Positions 3,871 to 49,861 of a DNA stretch of 64,000 nucleotides are shown here, one piece after another. The stretch covers positions 374,418,001 to 374,482,000 of the forward strand of contig OZ024741.1 of NCBI GenBank assembly GCA_964016885.1. Direction: 5' to 3'. This DNA comes from Eledone cirrhosa. Taxonomy: Eukaryota. The position numbers and the translations under genes are program-made. Below the pieces are notes generated by a model. That model worked only from the letters and a program-made list of their open reading frames with translations. It did no database searches and was not told where the DNA came from. The first letter of the stretch is position 1. Each line of letters begins with the position of its first letter.

Positions 3871-4010
3871 GCGTTGGTGGCATTGAAGCAGAAGCTGTTA
3901 TGCTTGGTCAGTCAATCAGTATGGTACTTCCTAAAGTTGTTGGCTACAAACTGACTGGTGAACTTGATCAGTATACAACATCTACAGATGTAGTCCTCAC
4001 AATTACTAAG
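3871..4010 (+). CDS. ACO1: Cytosolic aconitase / iron regulatory protein 1, internal exon ([13 protein letters not shown]...VVLTITK)
   Basis: tttttag acceptor, gtaatt donor, 140 bp; conserved aconitase A/IRP sequence. Confidence 0.95.
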
Positions 4011-4042
4011 GTAATTCTTGCATTTCTATTACTTGTTTTTAA

Positions 4043-4272
4043 CCCTTTTGTTACCAAACCGGCTAAAACCGGCTCTGTATCTATGAAATAAAATCACCCA
4101 TTTTATAGGTTTCGTATTTAAATTAATATATTACAACATAATTTTATTTAAGAATCTTACATTAATTTACTATCTTAGTAATGAAATAATTGGTAATTTT
4201 AATAAATCCCTCAAAATTCTTTATTAATTAATTGAAATAGTGTATTTCATTAGAAATACAGTCATGAAAGGG
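4043..4272. mobile_element. TTAA-flanked MITE (piggyBac-type ends)
   Basis: TTAA|CCCTTT ... AAAGGG|TTAA with imperfect TIRs, non-coding. Confidence 0.65.
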
Positions 4273-5006
4273 TTAAATTATATGAAAGCATGTGGCTTAG
4301 TTGTTATGATCATAATTGTTGTGGGTTCAAATCTTGGACCAAGTGGCAGTTTGTATTCTTGAGAAAGATGCTTCATTTCATGTCACTTTTCATCATAGGA
4401 CTAGGGCGCTTATGATTAAAACACCCAAGAAACCCCCCTATAAGACATAATTTGTATTATAAATAGAACAAGCCTTGAAGTAAAAACATGAAAAATTTAT
4501 ACGAGGCAAAAATACGACTTATTTTTGATAAGTATACACTAAATATTTCACTAACTTCATTATTTCTTCTCTTCCTCTCTGTCTATAATTATCATCATTG
4601 TTTTTGCGTTAACTTTTCCATACTGGCTTAAGTTGGATGGGACTTTTTGAGGCAGTGTTTTATAGTGGGCTGCTTTTCTTGACACAAACCCTTTTAATTT
4701 CTTCTTATATGCAAGGATACAGTGTGCTTTTTCTAAGCCATATGCACGTGGCTTCACAATGTGGGATCCTAACCACGGCCTATATATATATATATATATA
4801 TATATATTTTTTTGTCAATCAAATATTATCAATCTCACACATATCTGTATGTGTAGCTAATGTACCTCTCTTCCTTTTTGTCTCTTCCATCTCTCTCAGC
4901 ACAGCCACTGCTTTCTCCTTTCAGTGTGACAGAAAGAAAAGAAAAGAACAAGCATACATTATTTAGCATTTTATATATTAAGATGTTCTCTTTTCATTCT
5001 TTTTAG

Positions 5007-5178
5007 CATCTACGAAGTGTTGGTGTTGTTAGTAAATTTGTTGAATTCTATGGCTCAGGAGTTGCCCAGCTTTCTATTGCTGATCGATCAACTATATCCA
5101 ATATGTGTCCTGAATATGGAGCTACTGTTGGTTATTTTCCAATCGATCAAATAAGCATTGACTATCTTCAACAAACCA
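5007..5178 (+). CDS. ACO1: ACO1 exon ([16 protein letters not shown]...[14 protein letters not shown]...QQT)
   Basis: ttttag acceptor, gtaag donor, 172 bp, in phase with neighbouring exons. Confidence 0.95.
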
Positions 5179-5294
5179 GTAAGATATTTGCCATTAATCC
5201 TATTTTGCAATATGCTTTCAATGTTGTATTTTGTTTTTTAATTATTTATAATATATTATATATATATATATATATTATATATGTGTATATTTAT

Positions 5295-5325
<31 letters not shown>

Positions 5326-5326
5326 C

Positions 5327-5678
5327 ACCCCCTACCCTATCCTCCCACTTCCACCAACACCTCCCTCTCTCTGTAAAGTTGGTACCACAACATCCAGTCC
5401 AAATAAATGAGATAATGAGATCGAGATCGTGTAGGTGTCACGACAAAAAAACACACAGTCCACGCTGTAATGTGGCCGTGTAGGTAACACGGTAAAAAGT
5501 TCCCAGTTTCACACTGTAAATGTGGTTGGTGTTAGGAAGGGCATCCAGCCGTAGAAAACCTGCCAGATAGTCCTATATGAGCGAGACACGGTCACCCGAC
5601 CAACCTTGCTGCAAGTGGGACAACTCCTGTCTAACCCATGCTAGCGTGGAAGATGGACGTTATACGATGATGATGATG
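5327..5678 (+). mobile_element. Diverged 3' UTR fragment of RTE family B
   Basis: GTGTAGGTGTCACGAC...GGAAGGGCATCCAG...CCCATGCTAGCGTGGAA...(TGA)n; TA repeat at the 5' side. Confidence 0.75.
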
Positions 5679-5889
5679 AATATATTATATCTGTGTGGTT
5701 TAGAAATTCACTTCTGAACCAAGTGATTTCAGGTTTAGTCCTATTGTGTAACACCTTGGGCAACTGTTGTCTACTATAGCCCCAGGTCATTCAACGCCTT
5801 GTGTGTGAACTTGGTACATGGAAACTATAAGGAAGCATATCATATATATATATATATATATACGATGATATTAAATAAATGGAAACTAT

Positions 5890-5986
5890 ATTTATAAAAC
5901 CATATTTATTCTATTATATATATTTCAAGGGTACCAAAACTTTGGTACGCTTTCATCAGATAAAATACAAAGTTTGTTTTATAAAT
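5890..5986 (-). ncRNA. Type I hammerhead ribozyme, family 2 copy 1
   Basis: Minus strand reads TATTTTAT-CTGATGA-AAGcGTACCAAA gt TTTGGTACcCTT-GAAA-TATATA-TA-ATAGAATA; outer stem ATTTATAAAAC/GTTTTATAAAT. Confidence 0.85.
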
Positions 5987-6435
5987 GTTGACATAACAAA
6001 GAAAAGATACCTTAATGGTTCAAGTTTTTCTTGGATAGTTTTCTTGGTTCAAGTTTTTCTTGACTATCCAAGAAAAACTTGAACCGTTAAGGTATCTTTT
6101 CTTGGTTATGATCATTTGTACATACATGATGAACATTTATATAATCATATCCTAGAAATAAATTAACATATATTTATCTTTAATTACTTCCATGTGTCAG
6201 TAACTAACTTAACCAATAGGATTTCTCTTATGCAAATCATAAATTTACCAAAATAGGAATTTCTCAATTTGTATGATTGTTCATATATCCAGTAATTTTA
6301 GTATTGATGGCACTGGTCCACGAGTAAAAGAAAAAAAACTGCACTGAGGCTGAATGAGATTTTGTTGGGTAAAAATTTAAAGTTCTCTCAAAGATATTTT
6401 AGAGCAAAGCTAAATATATATTCTTATATACAATT

Positions 6436-6765
6436 GTACTTGCTTCGGCAATTTGTTTTTGTTAGTTGTTTAACCTTGTAACACCCAAGGAGACGTAGGG
6501 GCGCCATATTAATATACAGTGTCTCTAATGTTTGTTTGTTTTTTAAACTTGGTGGAGCCCATCTACTCTCCAGGTCTGAATACAGCAGATTATTTTCCAG
6601 AGAAGGATAGAGAGTGAGAGAAAAGAAATGAGAAAGAGATATAGAGGAAGAATTGACCCCAGTAATGGCCTGTACATATACTAAAATCGGAATGATACAT
6701 TGATGATTAACATGGCCCCTGTGCAAGGACGACTTCACAAATTTGTGAAGTATCTCATTTTTTTT
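6436..6765 (+). pseudogene. U6 snRNA pseudogene split by a 221-bp insertion
   Basis: GTACTTGCTTCGGCA (6436-6450) plus GTACATATACTAAAAT...CATGGCCCCTG...GTGAAG...T-run (6672-6765); ACAGAGA box mutated to ACATTGA. Confidence 0.9.
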
Positions 6766-6766
6766 A

Positions 6767-6920
6767 GGCTGTGAATTGGCTGAGTCATTATGTTATCAGA
6801 TTACCTGCAGTGGTATTTATTCAGGCTTGCTGTGCTCTGAGTTCTAATCCTGCCATGGTCAACTTTGCCTTTCACCTTTTCAGGGTTGATGAATAAAGTA
6901 TCAGTCCAGTACTGGAGTCC
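6767..6920 (+). mobile_element. tRNA-derived SINE copy (degenerate)
   Basis: B-box-like GAGTTCTAATCC followed by GTCAACTTTGCCTTTCA...AATAAAGTA, shared with copies at 7800-8010, 14447-14656 and 43932-44760. Confidence 0.6.
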
Positions 6921-7118
6921 ATTCTTCCTCTATATCACTCTCCCAGTCCTTCTCTGGAAGATATCAGCTGTTCAGACCTGAGGAGAGAGATGGACTCTGT
7001 ATGTCACTATGGCACCCCTACAACTCCATCTGGAGTTACAAGTCTATACACTCATACACTCCATTGTCTTATGCGATTGTTCCATTTCACTTGTTCTGCA
7101 TAATTTTCTTCTTTCTAG

Positions 7119-7219
7119 ATCGTAATGAAGAGAATCTGTTATATATAGAAACATTCCTCAAAGCAAACAAAATGTTTAGGGACTATACTAACTCTGATGA
7201 GGATCCTATATATAGTGAG
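7119..7219 (+). CDS. ACO1: ACO1 exon (RNEENLLYIETFLKANKMFRD...DPIYSE)
   Basis: tttctag acceptor, gtaag donor, 101 bp, phase-consistent. Confidence 0.9.
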
Positions 7220-7449
7220 GTAAGTGGAAATATTTCTCTTTGGTTCATGTGGGATCCTTAGGTCAACCAATGCCATAAGTTAATATATATACTTGAATAT
7301 AAGTCGAGGTATATATGACCGAAAAAATTGATCGTAGAAGGTGGGGTATAGATTATTTATGGTGTTGATGTGTTCATCAATCAAGTTCTCAGTACTGGTG
7401 TAGCCAGTTACTAGGGTGTCATTCTAGATGTTTTCAGTTAGTTGCTCAC

Positions 7450-7592
7450 TTATTCATCGTCATGCGCAAAAAAGTTGCAGTATTGTGATGTTCAGTTCTT
7501 GATGTTGTCAGATTAGGATCTCCTTTGTTTGCTTTTCTTTTGCTCTCTCTCAACTGTGCCCTGAAGAATGGTTTTAGACAAGGAGTCGTTGA
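7450..7592 (-). mobile_element. Decayed RTE C-terminal fragment
   Basis: Minus strand encodes DSLSKTILQGTVE...SDNIK with stops, typical of the RTE ORF end. Confidence 0.55.
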
Positions 7593-7799
7593 AAGATACC
7601 AGGTGACTGAAAGCGGTTAGCACCAGGAAGGGCATCCAACTGTAAAATATTAACATAAAAAAAAACCCATGAGGGGTATGAAGTGTCATTGGGTCTGCAA
7701 GGCTAACTTTTGTGTAGGAGGGAAGATTGCCTTAATATGCTTGCTGTTGCATAATGTTGAGATTAAAATTACAGTTGGTGATGAACATTTATTATAATA

Positions 7800-8010
7800 G
7801 TTTCTGATTTAGACACAAGGCAAACAGTTTTGGTGGCAAGGAAAGTCGATTAAATCGACCCCAGTGTGTTACTGGTGCTTTATTTTATCGACCCCAGATG
7901 AAAATCAAAGCTTATTTCGGTGGGATTTGAACTCAGAATGTAAAGGGGCATGACTCTATGATGCAAAGCATGTTGCCCCAAGCTCGACTGATACTGCCAA
8001 GCCACCGCCC
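7800..8010 (-). mobile_element. tRNA-derived SINE copy
   Basis: GGGATTTGAACTC (reverse B box) and ATCGACCCCAG repeats shared with 43932-44760. Confidence 0.65.
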
Positions 8011-8109
8011 ATTTATTATAATGAAATTAATTTCAAATAATTGTAACATTTGTTGCAATATGTATGGTAATGTTTTTTTATTTCTATTTTTATTATTTTC
8101 CTTAAACAG

Positions 8110-8238
8110 TACTATGAATTAGATTTGAGCACAGTGAGTTCATGCTGTTCAGGGCCAAAGCGTCCTCATGACAAGGTACTAGTAAAAGATTTAAAAGAAG
8201 ATTTCGCCAATTGTTTGACATCACCAGTTGGTTTCAAG
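8110..8238 (+). CDS. ACO1: ACO1 exon ([21 protein letters not shown]...VGFK)
   Basis: aaacag acceptor, gtaaat donor, 129 bp; SGPKRP.D motif. Confidence 0.93.
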
Positions 8239-8740
8239 GTAAATTTTCATATTAAATCACCTTTACTTGATGTTTGTATTTTATTCTTTCAATATTGTGA
8301 GCTAAATAGAATTGTTGAGGCATACATCTAGTATGCACCTCCTTCCCCTCCATCACCTCCCTTTTTGTAACACACCACTCCTCACACTTGCCCCTAGATG
8401 CACCTCCCCTACCCAAGTCCCCAGCCCATACTTTAAAGAAGTTGTGTAGGTGTCATGACAAAAATTGCCCAGTAAAGTCGTCAGCTAGGTGTCACGACAA
8501 AAGCACCCTGTACACTGTACATGTAGTCGGCATTAGGAAGGGCATCCAGCCGTTAGAGACCAAGCCAAAATAAGTTCTATATGAGCAAAACAGTCATACA
8601 GCCTGGCTTGTCTCACAACTTGTCTTTAACATGGACGTTAAACAGCAATGATGATATATATAGTTGGTTGTATAGTTGGACATATCATCACGTTTTTACA
8701 TCTGCTTTTCCATGCTTGCATGGGTTGGACATATATATAT

Positions 8741-11700
8741 ATTATGATGTTCCCTGTTGTATTAGCGTTAAATTTTCCCTGCTGTATTAGCGATAAATTT
8801 TCGAGGGTTTCTCTTAGTAGTTTTTCATGACGTTATTATTGTTAATTTTACTGATGTAGTATTAACTTATTAACTTGGATATTTACCATGCGGTATTCTA
8901 ATCCTATTGTATCTCTCTGTTATTTACCATGCAACCCTCAGTTCCTACCCCCCCCCTCTCTATGCACTTCTTTAAGGCTTACTACCCTGTCTTTAACCTA
9001 ATTCATTCAATCTGAAAATATTGAAGAGATAAGACACTTTCCCATTCTTCTCTGCTAAAATGTATCACTAGAGCTGATTCCAATTTTTCCAGCCATCCAT
9101 CTAATCTACGAAGGTATTTTAGCCTACATATTGTCGTTAATATTATGATGTTCCCTGTTGTATTAGCGTTAAATTTTCCCTGCTGTATTAGCGATAAATT
9201 TTCGAGGGTTTCTCTTAGTAGTTTTTCATGACGTTATTATTGTTAATTTTACTGATGTAGTATTAACTTGGATATTTACCATGCGACCCTCAGTTCCTAC
9301 CTCACAATTTCCCTCCCCCCCACCCCCACACACCACCATAGTCTATTCGACCAATCAAACCTAGCATGCCATTTCCACTGCTGCTGCTACTACCTGCCTA
9401 ACTAACTCTCTCCTCCTCTGGCGCATCCCAACACACCCTGCCATTACCCCACCACCACTGTTCTTCTAGCCCTCAATTTTCCCACCGTTATGGATGGATG
9501 AGCTGGGAATACACGAGCAACTCTGAATCAATAGATGAAATATGAATCTGCGAGCTACCAAGCACCCACGTGAAGCGCCAACCCAGAGACCCTCCCCTAC
9601 GAGTGTCGACAAATGCCCAAAACTCCGAGTTGGTACCATCAATGTAGGCTCAATGAAAGGAAGAGCAGGAGAAATCGTAGAAATGCTAGAGCGAAAGGAA
9701 GTTGATGTATGCTGTGTGCAAGAGACTAGATGGAGAGGAGGGTCTGCTAGAGTCCTTGTAGGAAAAAGCCAGTGCTACAAATTTTTCTGGGTGGGAAATG
9801 ACGATGGGATGGGTGGTGTAGGTATACTATTAGCTGACAAGTGGGTAGATAAAGTAATCTCAGTGTACAGGGTAAATGCAAGAATCATTAAACTCAGACT
9901 AGTCCTGAATAAGACAATTACCACAATAATATCAGCTTACGCACCCCAATCGGGGCTGCCAGACGAACTTAAGGATAGGTTTTACGAGTCCCTAATACAC
10001 ACTACTGCTCTAACAGACGACAAGGACTTCCTAATCATTGCAGAAGATTTTAACGGACACGTAGGTAAACACTGCGACGGCTTCAATAGAGTACATGGAG
10101 GTCATGGAGTTGGCACAAGGAATGAGGAAGGATTCAGACTTCTAGAATTCTGCGACGCCAATGACATGTCGATATGTAACACAAACTTTAAAAAACCCGA
10201 CAACCACCTGATCACCTATAGATCAGGGGAGCACTCTAGTCAGTTAGATTTTATCCTCATCAGAGGACGTGACAGATGGACGGTCGTAAACACAAAAGCC
10301 TTCCCTAGTGAGGAATGTACATCCCAACATAGCTTAGTTGTCAGCGACCTCACGGTCAGAACTAGACGAGCCCTGAAACAGAGGCCAACCTGGAGAAGAA
10401 AGATCTGGAAGCTGAAAGTCCCCTCAACCAGTAACAGATTTAAAGATATTTTGCTCAACGCCTACGACAGTAAAGAAGAACAGATAGACATTTAACGTAG
10501 AAGAGAACTGGGAGTTCCTAAAAAATAACTTACTAGAGGCGACGGATGAGGTTTGTGGCTGGAGTAAGACCTCAAGCAGGAGGAGAGTGACTTGGTGGTG
10601 GAACAATAAGGTAGATGAAGCAGTCAAGGCCAAGAGACAGGCATGGAAAGAATGGAAGAACGGGGGGAGCAGGGTACATTACATAGAGACCAAGAGGGAA
10701 GCTAGGCGACAAGTATACTTAGCTAGGAGGGAAGCAGAGGATAGAAAATTCAAGCATGTTTTACAACGTGAGGACCAGAAACAGGAGGTATTCAAGATTG
10801 CGAGGCAGTGTGTCAGAGATAGTTGTGATGTCATTGGAGAGAAGTGTATCCGGAATGATAAAGGTGAGCTTGCCCTCACAAGTGCTGAGAAGAAAGATGC
10901 ATGGAAGAGTCATTATGATAGATTACTAAATGAGGAGAATGCATGGGAAGAAGAGACCCTACCCCACGTAGACCCTATAGAGGGACCAGCAGTACAAGTC
11001 AGCGGCAGCGTAGTAAGTAAGGCAATCAGAGATATGAAGATAGGGAAGGCAACCGGTCCATCGGGTATAGCTGCCGAGATGCTGAAGGCATCTGGGTCTG
11101 TAGGTCACACTATAACCACACGTATCGTTAACCAGGTAATACTAGAGGCGGCCATACCAAAAGATTGGTGCAGTAGCATCATTGTCAACTGCTACAAAGG
11201 TAAAGGCGATGCACTAGATAGAGGAAACTATAGAGGTATAAAGTTGATGGACCAGGTCATGAAAGTAACAGAAAGAGTTATAGCACAGCTGATTAGGGAC
11301 CGGGTGAATATAGACGAGATGCAATTTGGGTTTGTACCAGGGAAAGGCACCACTGATGCCCTCTTCCTTGTGAGGCAATTACAGGAAAAGTACCTAGCTA
11401 AAAGTAAGCCACTCTACTTGGCATTTGTCGACCTTGAGAAAGCCTTTGACAGAGTTCCACGTGCAGTAATCTGGTGGGCTCTTAGAAAACTAGGAGTAGA
11501 TGAATGGCTTGTGAAAGCGGTACAAGCCATGTATAGGGGAGCAGTCAGCAAAGTTAGGATTGGCAATGAGTATAGCGAGGAATTTAGCGTACAGGTTGGG
11601 GTCCACCAGGGCTCTGTTCTTAGCCCTCTCCTGTTCATCATAGTCCTGCAGGCAATAACGGAGGAGTTTAAGACCGGATGCCCATGGGAACTCCTGTATG

Positions 11701-12966
11701 CTGATGACCTCGCACTCATAGCTGAATCTATGGTAGAACTAGAGAATAAATTCCAAACCTGGAAGCAGGGACTAGAGAGAAAGGGCCTCAAAGTCAACAT
11801 GACAAAGACTAAGGTCCTTATAAGTAGACGAGAAAACAGAACCCAGATCCCCTCAGGGAAATGGCCTTGCTCAGTATGTAGGAAAGGTGTAGGTAGGAAC
11901 TCCATTCTCTGCCCCAAATGCAAACAATGGGTACACAAGAGATGTAGCGGGATCTCAGGAAGCTTAATTAAGAATGTAGGATTCACATGCAGCAGCTGTG
12001 CTGAAACAGCAAGCAAACAGCCACAGGAAACAAGTACCACTAATCTCTGGGAGGGCCCTGTAGAAACAGTAGACAGCTTCTGCTACCTAGGTGACCGAAT
12101 TAGCAACGGAGGTGGGTGCTCAGAAAGTACAATAACTAGGGTAAGAACGGGATGGAAGAAGTTTAGGGAACTACTACCACTGCTAGCTGCAAAAGGCTTC
12201 TCCCTCAGAATGAAAGGCAGACTGTATGATGCGTGTATCCGAACAGCGATGTTGCATGGTAGTGAGACCTGGGCGCTGAAGGTGGAAGACTTACGTAGAT
12301 TAGAGAGAAACGAAGCCTGCATGCTCCGATGGATGTGTAACAGTAATATACGTGAACGACAAAGCATAAAGGAATTGAGAGAGAGACTGAGCATAAGAGG
12401 AATCAAATGCTGCGTGCAGGAGAGGCGGTTACGCTGGTATGGACATGTGATGCGTATGAAGGATGACAGCTGCATAAAAAGGTGCAGAGCACTAGAAGTT
12501 GATGGAAACCGCGGAGTGGGGAGACCCAAGATGACTTGGGATGAGGTGATAAAAGCCGACCTTACCCAACTACACCTCTCAAAGTCAATGACACACGACC
12601 GTGACTTCTGGCGTCACGCAGTAATACAGGGTACCCGACCTCCCATGGGTACATGCTGAAGCATATAAACAATACCCCCCCACCCCCACCCCCCCGCAAG
12701 GTGGTCGTGGAGGTGCCACGGCAAAAAAGCACCCAGCCCACACTGTAAAGTGGACGTGTAGGCGCCACGAAAAAGCACCCAGCACTCACTGTAAATGAGG
12801 TTGGTGTTAGGAAGGGCATCCAGCTGTAGAAATCAAGCCAAATCAGTTCCTGTATGAGCAAGGCATGGTCAGCCGACCAGACACTGCCCACAACAGGACA
12901 ACCCGTCTAACCCATGCTAGCGTGGAAGAACGGGCGTAAAACGGTGATGATGATGATGATGATGAT
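8741..12966 (+). mobile_element. Full-length RTE-clade LINE, family A copy 1
   Basis: 5' UTR, APE-RT coding region, 3' UTR and (TGA)n tail; short (TA)n on both sides. Confidence 0.92.
9542..12659 (+). pseudogene. APE endonuclease-RT ORF of RTE family A, frameshifted
   Basis: TINVG, QETRW, YAPQ, DLEKAFD, QGSVLSP, YADD motifs; 2-bp deletion near 10487 relative to the copy at 37957. Confidence 0.9.
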
Positions 12967-13062
12967 ATATATATATATATATACTTTTATAATGATAGAC
13001 ACACACACATTTATATTTACATGTGTATGTAAACCCTTCCAAATTGACAAGTAAATGTTTAA

Positions 13063-13252
13063 CCCTTTAGCTATTATACTATATTTACTACTGTATTTTC
13101 GTGGTAAAGGCTTTATCTATATAATTATCTCACATAATATCGAATCTATGAGATTTTGAGAATAATATCTTAACATCAGTATGAATGGTCAGTTACGGCC
13201 AGTTTGAACAGAAAGAGATGAGAGAAATTTGGCAGGATACGGCTGAGTTAAA
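13063..13252 (-). mobile_element. TTAA MITE, reverse copy of the 17343-17555 family
   Basis: TTAA|CCCTTTAGC start; body is the reverse complement of 17343-17555. Confidence 0.65.
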
Positions 13253-13575
13253 ATCTATACATGTTATTAAATTTTTTACATTTGAAGAAAAGCAAAAATA
13301 TTCTGAGTAGCTACACAATATTAGTAGTCACACAATGTAAAGCAAAATATTCTAATATGGGAATATTTTTGCTAATGTGGTTTCATGAGATACAAGACAT
13401 CGTCACTATAACGTAAATCTTTACTCTAATACTACATATTTTCACAATGATCTGTTCACTATTAAGGATGCTATAAACATTTGAATTAACAAACCCATTA
13501 TTACAAATGTTCTGCTAACTCATTACAAGATGTTAAGAGTTCAGTTTCTTTTTATCTGTAAATAAAAAAATGTTA

Positions 13576-13765
13576 ACTATATACTTGAATATAAGCCACC
13601 CTCCCCTTTTTATGTCTAAGAAATGGAAAAAATCCAATCCCCATTTACAAGTCAAGGCAGCTAATCAACATATTATTTAGATGGAGTATATAAGCTGATC
13701 ATCTCCAATTTACCATCGATTCTTTTTGGCCACATATTCCTCGGATTATATTCGAGTATATACGG
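13576..13765. mobile_element. Tc1/mariner (Tc2/pogo-like) MITE
   Basis: TATATACTTGAATATAAGCC ... GGATTATATTCGAGTATATACGG|TA inverted ends. Confidence 0.5.
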
Positions 13766-13833
13766 TAATTAAAAATATAATTCAATGAATAAAGAACCAA
13801 TATTTAACCACTCCTTAAATTTCTGTTTTTCAG

Positions 13834-13981
13834 GGTTATCAAATTCCTGATGATAAATTAAATATAACCATTCCATTTGACTTTAATAATAAACAAGAAA
13901 CTTTAAGTCATGGTTCTGTTGTGATGGCAGCCATAACTAGCTGTACTAATACTAGCAACCCATCTGTTATGCTAGGAGCAG
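13834..13981 (+). CDS. ACO1: ACO1 exon (GYQIP...[24 protein letters not shown])
   Basis: tttcag acceptor, gttag donor, 148 bp; contains the first Fe-S ligand Cys (SCTN). Confidence 0.96.
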
Positions 13982-14816
13982 GTTAGTTTTAAGTTTTCGT
14001 TATTTGTGTTTTAAGATTAATAGTTACTTTACAATTCAGCAAAGTTTTCTAAGATAATTTTATATTTTTAGTTATTTTTGATGATTTTTTTTGTATAATG
14101 AACTTGATATTACTTTGATATTTAGTATTATTATGGTCGAGTGGTCAGCGATCAAACCAGCTCCCCCACCAGACCCTGATGTGGTGAGGAGGGTAAGTAG
14201 AATCCCAGCAGCACAAAAAACAAGAGCTGTTAAATGGTGGATGAACACATCATAATCAACAGCCATCCACCCTAACTACGAGTTAAATAGCCACCACACC
14301 AACCTTCAATTGGCCATGCATGGTGAGTAAGGTTACACCCTTGAAGGCATGACCAAAGCCAAAAGTGCTGGAAGTCAACCAGGGAGGTGTTCCTCTAACA
14401 GGAGTCAGAAGGCCCTGGATTGGATTGGATTATTATGGTTAGAGTCAAGGATTGGCAGAATCATTACAGCATTGGACAAGTTACTTTGCAGTATTTAGCC
14501 TGGCGCTTTACATTCCTAGTTAAAATCCTTCCGCAGTCAGCTCATCTTTCATCCTTTTGGGGTTGATAAAATAAAACACGCTTGTCTAATATTGATGTCA
14601 ATTTAATCAATTAATCCCTTGCCTCTAAATTTATGTCCTAGTGCCTATGTTAGAAACTGCTGAGATTAACTTTACTTTTCATCTTACCAGCATCAATTTA
14701 AATAAATAGACCTACCCGTCAGATATTTGGTCTTGTATCTATGTTAGAATCAATTATGATATTAAATTTATTGAATGAAAATTTAAGTTTTTTTTTTTAT
14801 CTGTTATTTTTTAAAG

Positions 14817-14952
14817 GTTTATTGGCTCAGAAGGCAGTGAAAGCTGGCTTAAGTGTACCTCCCTACATCAAAACTAGTTTATCTCCTGGAAGTGGTGTTG
14901 TTACCTATTACCTCAAAGAAAGTGGTGTTATACCTTATTTAGAAGAATTAGG
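14817..14952 (+). CDS. ACO1: ACO1 exon ([11 protein letters not shown]...[15 protein letters not shown]...LEELG)
   Basis: ttaaag acceptor, gtaag donor, 136 bp. Confidence 0.96.
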
Positions 14953-15064
14953 GTAAGTTTTATTCATATAAAGACAATATTTCTTTTAACAGGTTGTTTC
15001 CCTCTACATTCACTTTTCTTGGGCAAGTGTTTTCTAGTCTTCTACAAATATTTTGTGTGTGAAT

Positions 15065-15553
15065 ATGTTGATCTGGAGAAAGCTTTTGACAGTCCCCTGT
15101 GCCATAATCTGGTGGACTCTTAGAAAACTAGGAATAGATGAGTGGTTTGTGAAGGCTGTACATCTCATGTATAGGGGAGCAGTCAGGAAAGTTAGGATTA
15201 ACTATAGCAAGGAATTTAGCGTACAGGTTGGTGTCCACCAAGGTTCTGTTCCTAGCCCTCTCCTGTTTATTATCATACTGCAGGCTATAACAGAGGAGTT
15301 TAAGACCGGCTGCTCCTGTACACATGATCATACACTCACAGCTGAGTATGGCGGAACTAGAGAAGTAATTCCAAACCTGGAAGCATGGCCTATTAACAAA
15401 AGGCTTTAAAGTCAACCTGACAAAAACTAAAGTTCTAGTAAGTAGAAGGCAAGGCAAAGCCCTGATCTCCTTGGAGAAATGGCCTTACTCAGTGTTTAGG
15501 TAGAAATTCCATCTTCTGTCCCAAATGCAAACTATGGGTACACAAGAGATGTG
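15065..15553 (+). mobile_element. Older internal RT fragment related to RTE families A/B
   Basis: KLGIDEW...[17 protein letters not shown]...EFKTGC with frameshifts and deletions. Confidence 0.85.
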
Positions 15554-15991
15554 TAATTTTTTATCCATGAAAAAGATTTTCGCATTTTTCTAAGTCTTTC
15601 AACTCTGACCTGGAAATTTGGAACTCATCAAATTCGACTGTTAGAAAAAAAGACTATATGTGCTTATATCACTATTTATTATTGAATGGAAAATGAACAT
15701 TTACATTTGAAGGTTCTACATAAAACAACCTGGTGAATTAGTTATTTTAACTTTCCCAGAGGAAGGGGGATAATTTAAGGTGGAATAACATCGTGAAATT
15801 ATTCATTATGTAAAAAAAAAAAATAATGCAATAATGATTAACTGTCAGTTTCATCATCAGATACTTCACTGTATATGAAATAAATAGCACAATTTTCTTA
15901 TGAAAAATTGGTTATTATGAAGTTATTTAAAAATTTGTATATTCATCCATTTTAATTTAATAAGTAACAAACTAACATAGACCTTTTCTTT

Positions 15992-16760
15992 TGGTGTACC
16001 ACGGGGATCTATTCTTGGTCCCCTTTTGTTTGTTGCATATATTAATGACATAGGTGCCAACTTAAACAATGCCATAGTGCTGAAATATGCAGATGATATC
16101 AAGCTGTACCTTGAGAGAAAAAGGACAGATCCTGTATGCTATAGATCTTTCCTGCAATCAGACCTGGACACAATGCAGCAATGGATTACAGACTGGCAAC
16201 TCAAGCTGGCTGTGGACAAGTGTACCACCATGCATTTTGGGAGGAAAAACCTAGCGTTCACGTACTCCCTCCACAACACTAATGTCAAAAAGTCTTCTTG
16301 TGAACGTGGCCTGGGCATTATTGTCAACAGCAATTTGCATTGGACAAAGCACATCTCTAACATTGTCAAGAAAGCTGAGGGTGTCTTAGCCTCACTCAGT
16401 ATTGTCAGTATTGTCAGCCGCTCTCCAGCTATCTATTTAAAATTGTATATAGCTATGGTGCGTCTACACTTAGAATTTACATCACCCTTGCAAGCAGGGA
16501 AAAGCGGACATAAAATGATGATGATGTCTGGAACCCCTATCTTGCTCAGGATATTGATCTCCTAGAAACTGTTCAAAGATGTGCAATCAAATGAATACTC
16601 TCCATCAGACATCTACCATACTCTGAACGCCTTGCTTCCCTGGGCATGTATACATTAAAGCTCCGATGTCTGGCAACTGACTTGGAAAGATGGTTAATAA
16701 TCTTGTGGGTATCTACCAACAACAACCCTGAGCACCTTTTAGAATTCCATATGTCTAACA
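15992..16760 (+). mobile_element. Decayed CR1/L2-group RT fragment
   Basis: GVP.GSILGP.LF..YIND, YADDIKL, LGIIV, HLEF.SP-VWNP motifs. Confidence 0.85.
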
Positions 16761-17057
16761 TGTATGTATATATAAGGGTCAGAGTATACCAGTTGCAGCA
16801 AATGCTACATCGACACCCTTTATAAAAAAACTGGTGGGGATATTGTTTATGTCCTCCATAAACAACACCCTACGCAGTGTAGTGGTTTAACAAACATCAG
16901 CAGCATATGCCATGTTTAGAATAAAATATGGGTTAGCATCTGGAAGAATATCCAGCCATGAAAGATCTTGTCCTACACATGCAAGCATGAAAAAAAAGCA
17001 AATATAAAATCAGTGATGCTGATGCATTAAGATAATGTCTATATGTTTAATTTTCAG

Positions 17058-17142
17058 ATTTAATATTGTCGGCTATGGATGTATGACTTGTATTGGAAAT
17101 AGTGGACCATTGTCTGATGAAGTATCTGCAGCAATTGAAAAG
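17058..17142 (+). CDS. ACO1: ACO1 exon ([18 protein letters not shown]...IEK)
   Basis: tttcag acceptor, gtttg donor, 85 bp; contains the second and third Fe-S Cys ligands. Last exon found in the window. Confidence 0.96.
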
Positions 17143-18546: not shown

Positions 18547-19019
18547 TTAAATTGAGGTAGTACACTGTAGTTATGATAAATAAAGAAACTTACAAATATA
18601 CTGAAACATTGACACACACAAATTTATAATCATGAATAGACAGTGACATAGAAACACACATTTACAACCTCATCAATGGAAACAGACTTTAGATAGATAT
18701 ATAGATATATATGTAAATATAATAGTAATAATAATAAATTTGAAGACTAAAATCCAAAGAGGGCTCGATAAGGATAAATATATATCAAATATATAAGAAC
18801 CGTAGAGCAAATATTTATTAAAATAACAGATTAAAGTTTAAGCAAAGAATCGCTGCTTTCACCCTTAACGGGATCTTCTGAAAAAAAAAAAAAAGTCTGT
18901 GAACACAGAAATAAATATTTCGAAAAACTTTGCAGCGATTCTTTGATTAAACTTTAATCTGTTATTTTAATAAATATATATATATATATATATACGATAT
19001 ATTAACAAATGGAAACTAT

Positions 19020-19124
19020 ATTTATAAAACCATATTTATTTCATTATACATATTTCAAGGACACCAAGTTAAATTATGGTGTGCTTTCATCAGATAAAAT
19101 ATAATAAAGAGCAGTTTTTTAAAT
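19020..19124 (-). ncRNA. Type I hammerhead ribozyme, family 2 copy 2
   Basis: Minus strand reads TATTTTAT-CTGATGA-AAGcACACCA-10 nt-TGGTGTcCTT-GAAA-TATGTA-TA-ATGAAATA. Confidence 0.85.
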
Positions 19125-19296
19125 AAATATTGACATACCCTTAAAGAATGCGACCATTTCTGTTGGGAGCTCCCGGATAGTGGGGTTATAAATCTGTTTA
19201 TACTATTATGCAAATTTATTATTTTTTTTATTTTTTATTTTATTTTATTTTATTTTATATTGTATATGTACTTCAATTATACTATGTACTGTATTT

Positions 19297-19350
<54 letters not shown>

Positions 19351-19455
19351 GTATGTATGTATGTATGTATGTATGTGTATATGTATGTATGTATGTGTAT
19401 ATATATGTATGTGTATATATATGTATGTATATATATATGTATGTATGTGTATATG

Positions 19456-48316: not shown

Positions 48317-48682
48317 TATGTATATATATATATATGTATGTATATATATATATATGTATGTATATATATATATGTATGTATGTATATATAAAAACAAATA
48401 ACGAAACGGAATTAAATTTCGTTTCGTTTGTAACTCACTTTTGTATGACTGACGCTTAAACAATTAAGTTAAAAATGTACATCCACATATGTATACTGAA
48501 ATACTAGTATGCATATGATTACACACACGTATACATATGTAGATGTACCGAGTTTTTCACTGGTCACTTTACTGTGAGTGTCCAGCTATTCTGTATGTAA
48601 ACACACAGACAAACCGGTTTTTAGAGTCATACAGGTTTTTGAGGAAACACCTTTCCTCTATTCTACAGAAAGCCAGACAAGG

Positions 48683-48727
48683 AATATTGAACTAGTTTCG
48701 ATGTTGTTACATCTCATCAGCAATATT
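48683..48727 (-). ncRNA. Type I hammerhead ribozyme, family 1
   Basis: Exact reverse complement of 49033-49077. Confidence 0.88.
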
Positions 48728-49032
48728 TACCTATCTTCCGGCCTCTCTAGAGAATCGTAAAAGCACATATCGTTATATGCTTTTTCTATGAAAATTAGTA
48801 GTGGGCAGACTAACTTGCATAGAGCGTAAGTACGTACCGGTTCAACGGAGACGATAAAAACAAATAACGAAACGGAATTAAATTTCGTTTCGTTTGTAAC
48901 TCACTTTTGTATGACTGATGCTTAAACAATTAAGTTAAAAATGTACATCCACATATGTATACTGATTTTCATAGAAAAAGCATATAACGATATGTGCTTT
49001 TACGATTCTCTAGAGAGGCCGGAAGATAGGTA

Positions 49033-49077
49033 AATATTGCTGATGAGATGTAACAACATCGAAACTAGTTCAATATT
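49033..49077 (+). ncRNA. Type I hammerhead ribozyme, family 1
   Basis: AATATTG-CTGATGA-GATGT aaca ACATC-GAAA-C TA G-TT-CAATATT; stem I can extend across 49005-49100. Confidence 0.88.
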
Positions 49078-49861
49078 CCTTGTCTGGCTTTCTGGAGAAT
49101 AGAGGAAAGGTGTTTCCTCAAAAACCTGTATGACTCTAAAAACCGGTTTGTCTGTGTGTTTACATACAGAATAGCTGGACACTCACAGTAAAGTGACCAG
49201 TGAAAAACTCGGTACATCTACATATGTATACGTGTGTGTAATCATATGCATACTAGTATTTCAGTATACATATGTGGATGTACATTTTTAACTTAATTGT
49301 TTATGTATATATATATATGTATGTATATATATATGTATATATATATGTATGTATATATATATGTATGTATATATATATGTATGTATATATATATGTATGT
49401 ATATATATATATGTATGTATATATATATATGTATGTATATATGTATGTATATATATATATGTATGTATATATATATATGTATGTATATATATATATGTAT
49501 GTATATATATATGTATGTATATATATATATATGTATGTATATATATATATATGTATGTATATATATATATGTATGTATATATATATATGTATGTATATAT
49601 ATATGTATGTATATATATATATGTATGTATATGTATATATATATATGTATGTATATGTATATATATATATGTATGTATATGTATGTATATATATGTATGT
49701 ATGTATGTATATATATGTATGTATGTATGTATATGTATATATATATGTATGTATGTATGTGTATATATGTATGTATGTGTATATATATATGTATGTATGT
49801 ATATATATATATGTATGTATATATATATATGTATGTATGTATGTGTATATATGTATGTATG

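Follow-up and report, generated by a model that had tools for sequence, protein, structure and literature searches.

A covarying type I hammerhead motif at the truncated ends of a Penelope-like retroelement in Eledone cirrhosa

The 64,000-nt stretch of the Eledone cirrhosa genome analysed here (the window; contig OZ024741.1 of assembly GCA_964016885.1) contains two related hammerhead motifs, and the one under study, copy 2, very probably belongs to the truncated end of a Hydra-clade Penelope-like retroelement. As judged from sequence, the stems and core of this type I hammerhead are likely to have been selected in successive master elements, inserted copies being left to decay without constraint, and the ribozyme would be conditionally active. 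It is important to stress that the covariation described below supports the fold and lends no support to cleavage.

Two window copies and their parent element

A sequence-only reading of the window had drawn attention to copy 2 as a second member of the family represented by copy 1, with the same junction to TA-rich DNA and the same core. Both copies indeed end in ATCG followed directly by (TA)n, and the shared core can be read directly on the minus strand, where both motifs sit; strand was absent from that reading. Aligned over 166 columns (E 2.5e-42), the two regions share 82.5% identity. The two paired swaps it had described in stem II are also real, copy 1 having G-C at pair 5 and U-A at pair 6 where copy 2 has A-U and C-G, as are the different stem II loop (6 nt in copy 1, 10 nt in copy 2) and the shift of the stem I wobble with pairing kept, a lone U.G standing at pair 4 in copy 1 and at pair 3 in copy 2. 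A further difference, at the centre of stem III (UA in copy 1, UG in copy 2, the segment being self-complementary either way), had escaped it. The fourth position of stem II is a C.C mismatch in both. Copies 1 and 2 could not by themselves show covariation, and they lie several steps apart, their two stem II swaps having no single-step origin. The positions of these features are collected in Table 1.

Table 1. Positions of the hammerhead copies and neighbouring features in the window
Feature	Position	Strand	Basis or remark
Copy 2: 3' end (pseudo-LTR), 5'-truncated, from a Hydra-clade Penelope-like element (assigned on sequence)	18995..19226	-	match to L064
Type I hammerhead motif, copy 2	19037..19101	-	sequence, motif scan, pair lists
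Stem I, copy 2	5' strand 19101-19094, 3' strand 19044-19037	-	
Catalytic core, copy 2	CUGAUGA 19093-19087, GAAA 19056-19053	-	
Stem II, copy 2	19086-19077 / 19066-19057	-	10 positions
Stem III segment, copy 2: self-complementary 8-nt palindrome AUAUGUAU	19053-19046	-	
Predicted cut, copy 2, after AUA	19045/19044 boundary	-	
Conserved terminal segment, copy 2; 25-nt search anchor	19007..19031	-	44,753 exact genome matches
Target (TA)n tract of the copy 2 insertion, at its short 3' end	18974..18994	.	sequence
Probable inverted 5' piece of the copy 2 insertion; 3' UTR sequence, partly microsatellite-expanded	19250..19450	+	
Copy 1: 5'-truncated end, another subfamily of the same Penelope-like element	5863..6039	-	core from 5959
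Inverted 5' piece of copy 1	6059..6120	+	90.6% over 64 columns
Host cytoplasmic aconitase gene, seven exons (aa 264-563)	3882..17142	+	

Copy 2 matches the 3' end of an ORF-bearing locus, L064, with 91% identity over 261 columns, the L064 ORF lying upstream, and the two are 97.8% alike over the hammerhead motif; copy 1 matches locus L058, which has RT-EN upstream, at 96.6% over 203 columns. In L064 (copy-2 type) and in L058 and L059 (copy-1 type), RT and GIY-YIG sequence is found 1.1–1.4 kb upstream of the hammerhead. Hammerheads of the copy-2 type are linked to an ORF in L064, L074, L076, L081, L089 and L100, and those of the copy-1 type in L058 and L059. The probable inverted 5' piece of copy 2 resembles L064 positions 1874-2073 in opposite orientation (about 70% over 211 columns, the best part 81% over 63), a match weakened by low complexity.

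The complete element has a unit of about 4 kb with a 3' UTR of 1.1–1.5 kb, and six loci (L103, L104, L105, L106, L107 and L109) preserve the order hammerhead, ORF, 3' UTR, hammerhead, that is, an ORF between two pseudo-LTRs. Frames of 738–746 aa, encoding RT plus a GIY-YIG domain at the C terminus, are open in L103, L104 and L105. All three ORFs scanned contain RWR (RSR in L103), DKT, YRDD, a CxCx5C linker, CxxC-E and CxH, and none of the three contains a CxxC..H..H pattern. A Pfam search of the ORF, including that of L103, matched no family, and its best database relatives are unnamed proteins 32–48% identical to it. The single ORF joining RT to a C-terminal GIY-YIG endonuclease, as read from motifs, is that of an EN+ Penelope-like element, and so are the pseudo-LTRs, the inverted 5'-truncated arms and the optional tail. 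The Hydra clade is defined, in the available parts of its description, by an RWK-like motif, DKT, a CxCx5C linker, CxxC/CxH around the catalytic E and N, and no CCHH (PMC8557442). Insertion into (TA)n, another mark of the clade, is found here too, and on its motifs the element is assigned to the Hydra clade, the references having been compared by eye. Naiad identity was rejected on the C-terminal position of the endonuclease, and non-LTR retrozyme identity on the lack of tandem units, the copies being ragged 5'-truncated ends of an ORF-bearing element.

The family is large. In the 3.0-Gb genome the 25-nt terminal motif has 44,753 exact matches and its reversed control has 0, and the pattern of core plus stems III and I has 35,118 exact matches, again with 0 for the reversed control, which bears out the earlier argument against a chance AT-rich match. 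Contigs of four sequencing runs (kind unknown) contain family variants, an observation with no bearing on expression. Other Penelope-like families have inserted near family copies at L034, L046, L047, L062 and L066, the one at L047 with a hammerhead of its own. The (TA)n tract of copy 2 also houses a separate small inverted-repeat element (window 18811-18977), the sequence of which flanks L034 and L049 too.

Both window copies are antisense to the aconitase gene, a nearby exon of which is 91% identical to the cytoplasmic aconitase of Octopus bimaculoides. An aconitase intron contains copy 1, and copy 2 lies 1.85 kb after the last exon found; since aconitase aa 564-928 were not found within the 64,000-nt window, copy 2 is probably intronic as well. 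Window positions 9539-63775 contain long TATG tracts and several ORFs of LINE type (APE-RT, in some cases with PHD or zf-RVT), and their presence past the exon that ends at aa 563 suggests either an intron of more than 46 kb or a broken gene. An aconitase intron also holds a U6 snRNA-like copy (6662-6764, plus strand) that scores 68.5 bits in Rfam, above gathering, has several changes and is probably a pseudogene. A second, unrelated hammerhead family is present as an inverted pair at 48667-48738 (minus) and 49022-49093 (plus), with a weak Rfam HH9 match of 36.5 bits, below gathering.

Pairing and core conservation across the family

An unbiased sample of the family was taken as the first 100 listed matches to the 25-nt terminal motif, picked regardless of the hammerhead. 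The whole motif is held by 91 of these copies; the 9 partial copies were left out, as were 5 with internal deletions, and the 86 remaining copies plus the two window copies form an alignment of 88 rows, referred to as A1. Its filter (at most 3 changes in the stem I 5' strand and core) introduces a mild bias, and the invariance of the terminal segment in A1 is a product of its use as the selection anchor.

The covariation that the sequence-only reading had anticipated does appear in this family-wide alignment. The named structure pairs in 94.4% of 1,764 cells, as against 39–53% in controls with slid partners, and its covariation score is 0.185, as against 0.025–0.110 for the slid partners. Stem II pairs 2 (A-U 38, G.U 5, G-C 32), 5 (A-U 45, G.U 4, G-C 24) and 6 (U-A 50, C-G 26) switch Watson-Crick type, and two-sided covariation within the helices is seen at these three and at one stem I pair. 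Almost every stem I change is a purine transition facing U, a type that easily preserves pairing. Three of five whole-structure measures beat all 500 shuffles, which ignore ancestry; the other two, pairs with two-sided change (369/500) and further pair types (500/500), do not rise above them. As a side observation, A versus G on the RNA strand accounts for many of the differences between lineages (A1 columns 49, 58, 59, 64, 97, 104 and 105), and changes in the reverse direction also occur.

The catalytic core is almost constant. Columns C3, U4, G5, A6, G8 and A9, G12, A13, A14 and A15.1, and U16.1 and H17 are each invariant in 85–88 of the 88 rows. N7 is a core position that is free to vary in hammerheads; here it takes all four letters (U57, G13, A12, C6) and is the sole core position at which group majorities differ. 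Three helices surround the core, stem I being open-ended and stem III having 2 bp in the monomer and 8 bp in a dimer. The structure has its irregularities: among the 78 distinct rows, pairing in stem II is missing at pair 8 in 19 and at pair 1 in 9, two of the stem II pairs do not form in entire lineages, and a bulge occurs in 19/86 rows. The closing pair 10.1-11.1 is A-U in 67/78 distinct rows and so departs from the usual G10.1-C11.1, a feature that is common in hammerheads and not strict.

Insertion ends, predicted folds and the place of cutting

The target of family copies is (TA)n; each stops at either of two fixed points, and an inverted 5' piece is often present. Sixty-one of the 100 sampled copies stop about 50 nt past the cut site, next to (TA)n-like DNA, and the other 39 carry on through a tail, about 90 nt long, made up of the beginning of the 5' UTR. 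Because 96 of the 100 read across the predicted cut site, with sequence from both of its sides, cut RNA ends do not define insertions. Four sampled copies begin downstream of the site, one of them (L118) possibly at the site itself, and no pile-up of 5' junctions was found there, with at most 1 in 100 sampled copies.

Several smaller features of the ends can be recorded. Inverted arms beside ORF pieces in L077, L079, L085 and L086 start within 1–2 nt of the base of stem II, which may reflect polymerase stalling at the hairpin or microhomology; the 9 partial copies in the unbiased sample show no such pile-up of 5' ends. A hairpin of the form ACUC-(11–16 nt)-GAGU-GC lies a few letters past the short end in 36/39 run-on copies (L111-L191 tails), and one of the form GCUC-(10 nt)-GAGC-GC lies past the tail end in 8/10 full-length 5' ends (5' UTRs of L102-L109); these counts record presence only, and the two hairpins may mark the two start sites.

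Folding programs give a mixed picture. An Rfam scan matched no hammerhead model at copy 1 or copy 2, even at E 10, and RNAalifold run on A1 returned, in place of the hammerhead, a different hairpin without two-sided change. This hairpin, in which GAAA pairs with the terminal segment, was considered as an "off-switch" and rejected, its probability being at most 0.12 in all 12 single sequences. Stem II folds alone in all 12 representatives. In every one of the 12 the cut-competent monomer fold lies 0.7–4.9 kcal/mol above the minimum because the A/U-rich stem I slips. The folds also predict that the first half of the terminal segment lengthens stem I outwards. A dimer in which the palindromes pair gains an 8-bp stem III, entirely Watson-Crick in copy 1 and with a tandem U.G in copy 2, and its predicted energy with one active site is -13.7 and -15.0 kcal/mol, as against about -7 for the monomer fold.

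These observations suggest a mechanism in which the monomer would be a poor cutter, since its stem III is a bare 8-nt palindrome, and in which a pair of hammerheads within a single transcript would join through their palindromes and cleave after AUA, probably with help from the element's protein. Reverse transcription would start 50 or about 140 nt downstream of the cut site and read through it, so that the templates would be uncut or re-ligated RNA, with ends not made by cutting.

An alternative, which we consider unlikely, is that selection keeps the fold as a platform where the element's protein binds or starts, cutting being vestigial and unneeded for spreading. The read-through of the cut site in nearly all sampled copies, with L118 at most starting there, fits such a platform, and so does the stem II mismatch carried by the lineage with the fewest private changes (23/86 rows; 0.09 singleton letters per row); hammerhead mutants of an anole element, in the accessible parts of that study, likewise showed no change of insertion in vitro (PMC11167929). 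What counts against mere binding is the pattern of constraint. Endonuclease-region DNA is only about 67% alike between lineages whose catalytic core is unchanged, the free position N7 apart, and stem III remains palindromic throughout; a constant core combined with a palindromic stem III is better explained by catalysis, and a conditionally active hammerhead is the reading we prefer.

Lineage-level switches and comparison with known hammerheads

An unrooted tree of ORF DNA could be made for 26 of 28 linked copies, two ORF pieces being too short; its forks are in places weak, 8 of 23 inner branches being starred. It arranges the hammerheads as a ladder of copy-1 type, bulged type, copy-2 type, U-A with pair 2 G.U, pair 2 G-C, and long-loop types, such that hammerhead types map onto ORF lineages and alter one letter at a time. 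On this tree pair 6 switches twice and pairs 2 and 5 once each, giving at least four separate switches.

Amplified G-U intermediates exist for three switches, those of pairs 5, 2 and 6. The pair 5 G.U subfamily has 887 copies, and pair 2 is G.U in 64 of the first 100 listed among 1,888 (hand count), or about 1,200 copies. For pair 6 in the copy-2 background the genome-wide counts are C-G 3,834, U-A 1,888, U.G 76 and C.A 153. The loop AACAU is shared by 33 (about 30) of the U.G copies, and by hand count 16 of these make up the two arms of 8 inverted pairs; a private upstream letter marks 13/20 fetched AACAU U.G loci as against 0/13 C.A and 0/7 U-A loci. In a tree with pairs 2 and 6 masked, for which 39/60 loci were long enough (the 21 left out are 5'-truncated), 9/10 U.G rows take a place between the C-G and U-A groups, and all C.A rows (6/6) are nested within the Watson-Crick groups. 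For pair 6 a route through C.A was considered and set aside, as C.A copies scatter and have no diagnostic letter of their own; overall there are more C.A than U.G copies, 153 as against 76, and there may have been a small C.A master.

The sequence-only reading had placed selection on structure in the source lineages, and the distribution of changes fits that placement. Of 35 changes private to one insertion, 22 break pairs and 13 keep them, and the core is hit 10 times; at the lineage level 13–14 of 17–18 stem changes keep pairing and 4 break it (hand count), a difference with a Fisher p of 0.008 for 14/4, or about 0.01 (hand count). Excluded from the lineage changes were one core variant found in two insertions and a G>A change at pair 5 found twice in each of two groups, the latter likely representing recurrent CpG decay.

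It could be argued that the covariation reflects shared ancestry and easy transitions in A/U-rich DNA, without selection on structure. The counts are of copies, not events, and only four two-sided switches of stem II are available; related sequences can beat every shuffle, pair-breaking lineages exist, and RNAalifold misses the hammerhead fold. This explanation is nevertheless very improbable. Every resolvable switch goes via G-U and none via an amplified A.C or C.A state, pair-breaking is far commoner among private than among lineage changes, slid partners pair much less often than the true ones, and the core moves at N7 alone. Hardly worth entertaining is a non-autonomous retrozyme or RNA-replicating circle family that owes its variety to RNA-to-RNA copying: most copies are short and lack an ORF, RNA-level steps have been suggested for such motifs (PMC4209133, in its accessible parts) and animal retrozymes have been proposed as derived from these elements (bioRxiv 10.64898/2026.07.22.740005, likewise in part), but tandem units are absent, 5' ends are ragged and often inverted, and hammerhead types track ORF lineages one letter at a time.

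Comparison with published systems, which in each case extends to the parts of the papers available, places the present hammerheads of a Penelope-like element in familiar company. The Hydra clade includes Hydra-1_Obim of Octopus bimaculoides, which has a hammerhead (Craig et al. 2021, PMC8557442). The element shares with the clade its C-terminal GIY-YIG, RWx and DKT, CxCx5C, the lack of CCHH, the (TA)n targets and a canonical hammerhead with a short palindromic stem III, and with the Hydra-1_Obim hammerhead a stem II that begins with an A-U pair; it differs from Hydra-1_Obim in hammerhead sequence (compared by eye), in its greater length, in its clear pseudo-LTRs and in its tens of thousands of copies (PMC8557442). 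As in other metazoan Penelope-like hammerheads, the palindromic stem III fits a dimer model (Cervera and De la Pena 2014, PMC4209133). Unlike the minimal hammerheads described there, ours have A10.1-U11.1 where those have G-C, their stem I is long and stem II is not preceded by a fixed extra letter. Covariation in such families had already been stated in the same paper; what a lineage tree resolves here in addition is the succession of changes, together with the G-U intermediates, and this argues against a need for the RNA-to-RNA steps considered there (PMC4209133).

Poseidon of Anolis carolinensis is similar in having two internal start sites, copies with or without a tail, uncut RNA as the main template and a hammerhead in the pseudo-LTR (Frangieh et al. 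2024, PMC11167929). It belongs to another clade, its tail is 30–40 nt as against about 90 nt here, and protein-assisted cutting has been shown for it, whereas the present element is known from sequence alone (PMC11167929). Watson-Crick switches via G-U and two-step compensation are known from structured RNAs (PMC6961544, PMC5381666), and that compensation ordinarily runs via G-U is textbook knowledge; the difference here is that the intermediates survive as countable subfamilies in one genome. Literature searches, which were short on subscription papers, yielded no account of this family and no report of a retroelement ribozyme with amplified wobble intermediates. The motif, the clade, its occurrence in octopus and covariation as such are thus already published, and the record of intermediates is a modest addition.

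A more ambitious reading treats the family as a within-genome fossil record of a ribozyme crossing fitness valleys, each resolvable switch passing through a transposition-competent G-U master with countable output and the core staying fixed despite read-through insertions. We regard it as possible at best and somewhat doubtful. If it were true, cutting would be under selection even though the cut RNA is afterwards re-ligated to give a circular template, and the natural variants could probe both the role of Penelope hammerheads and the cost of wobble intermediates.

What hammerheads do for Penelope-like elements is a standing question, one in vitro study having found them dispensable for insertion in the parts of the report available (PMC11167929). 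The family adds evolutionary evidence, in that fold and core have been kept over many master lineages despite templates that were probably uncut or re-joined, and its ladder of natural variants can be used for testing hammerhead function. With about 45,000 motifs in this one genome, some of them intronic, the hammerheads could also matter to the host if they are active when transcribed in sense.
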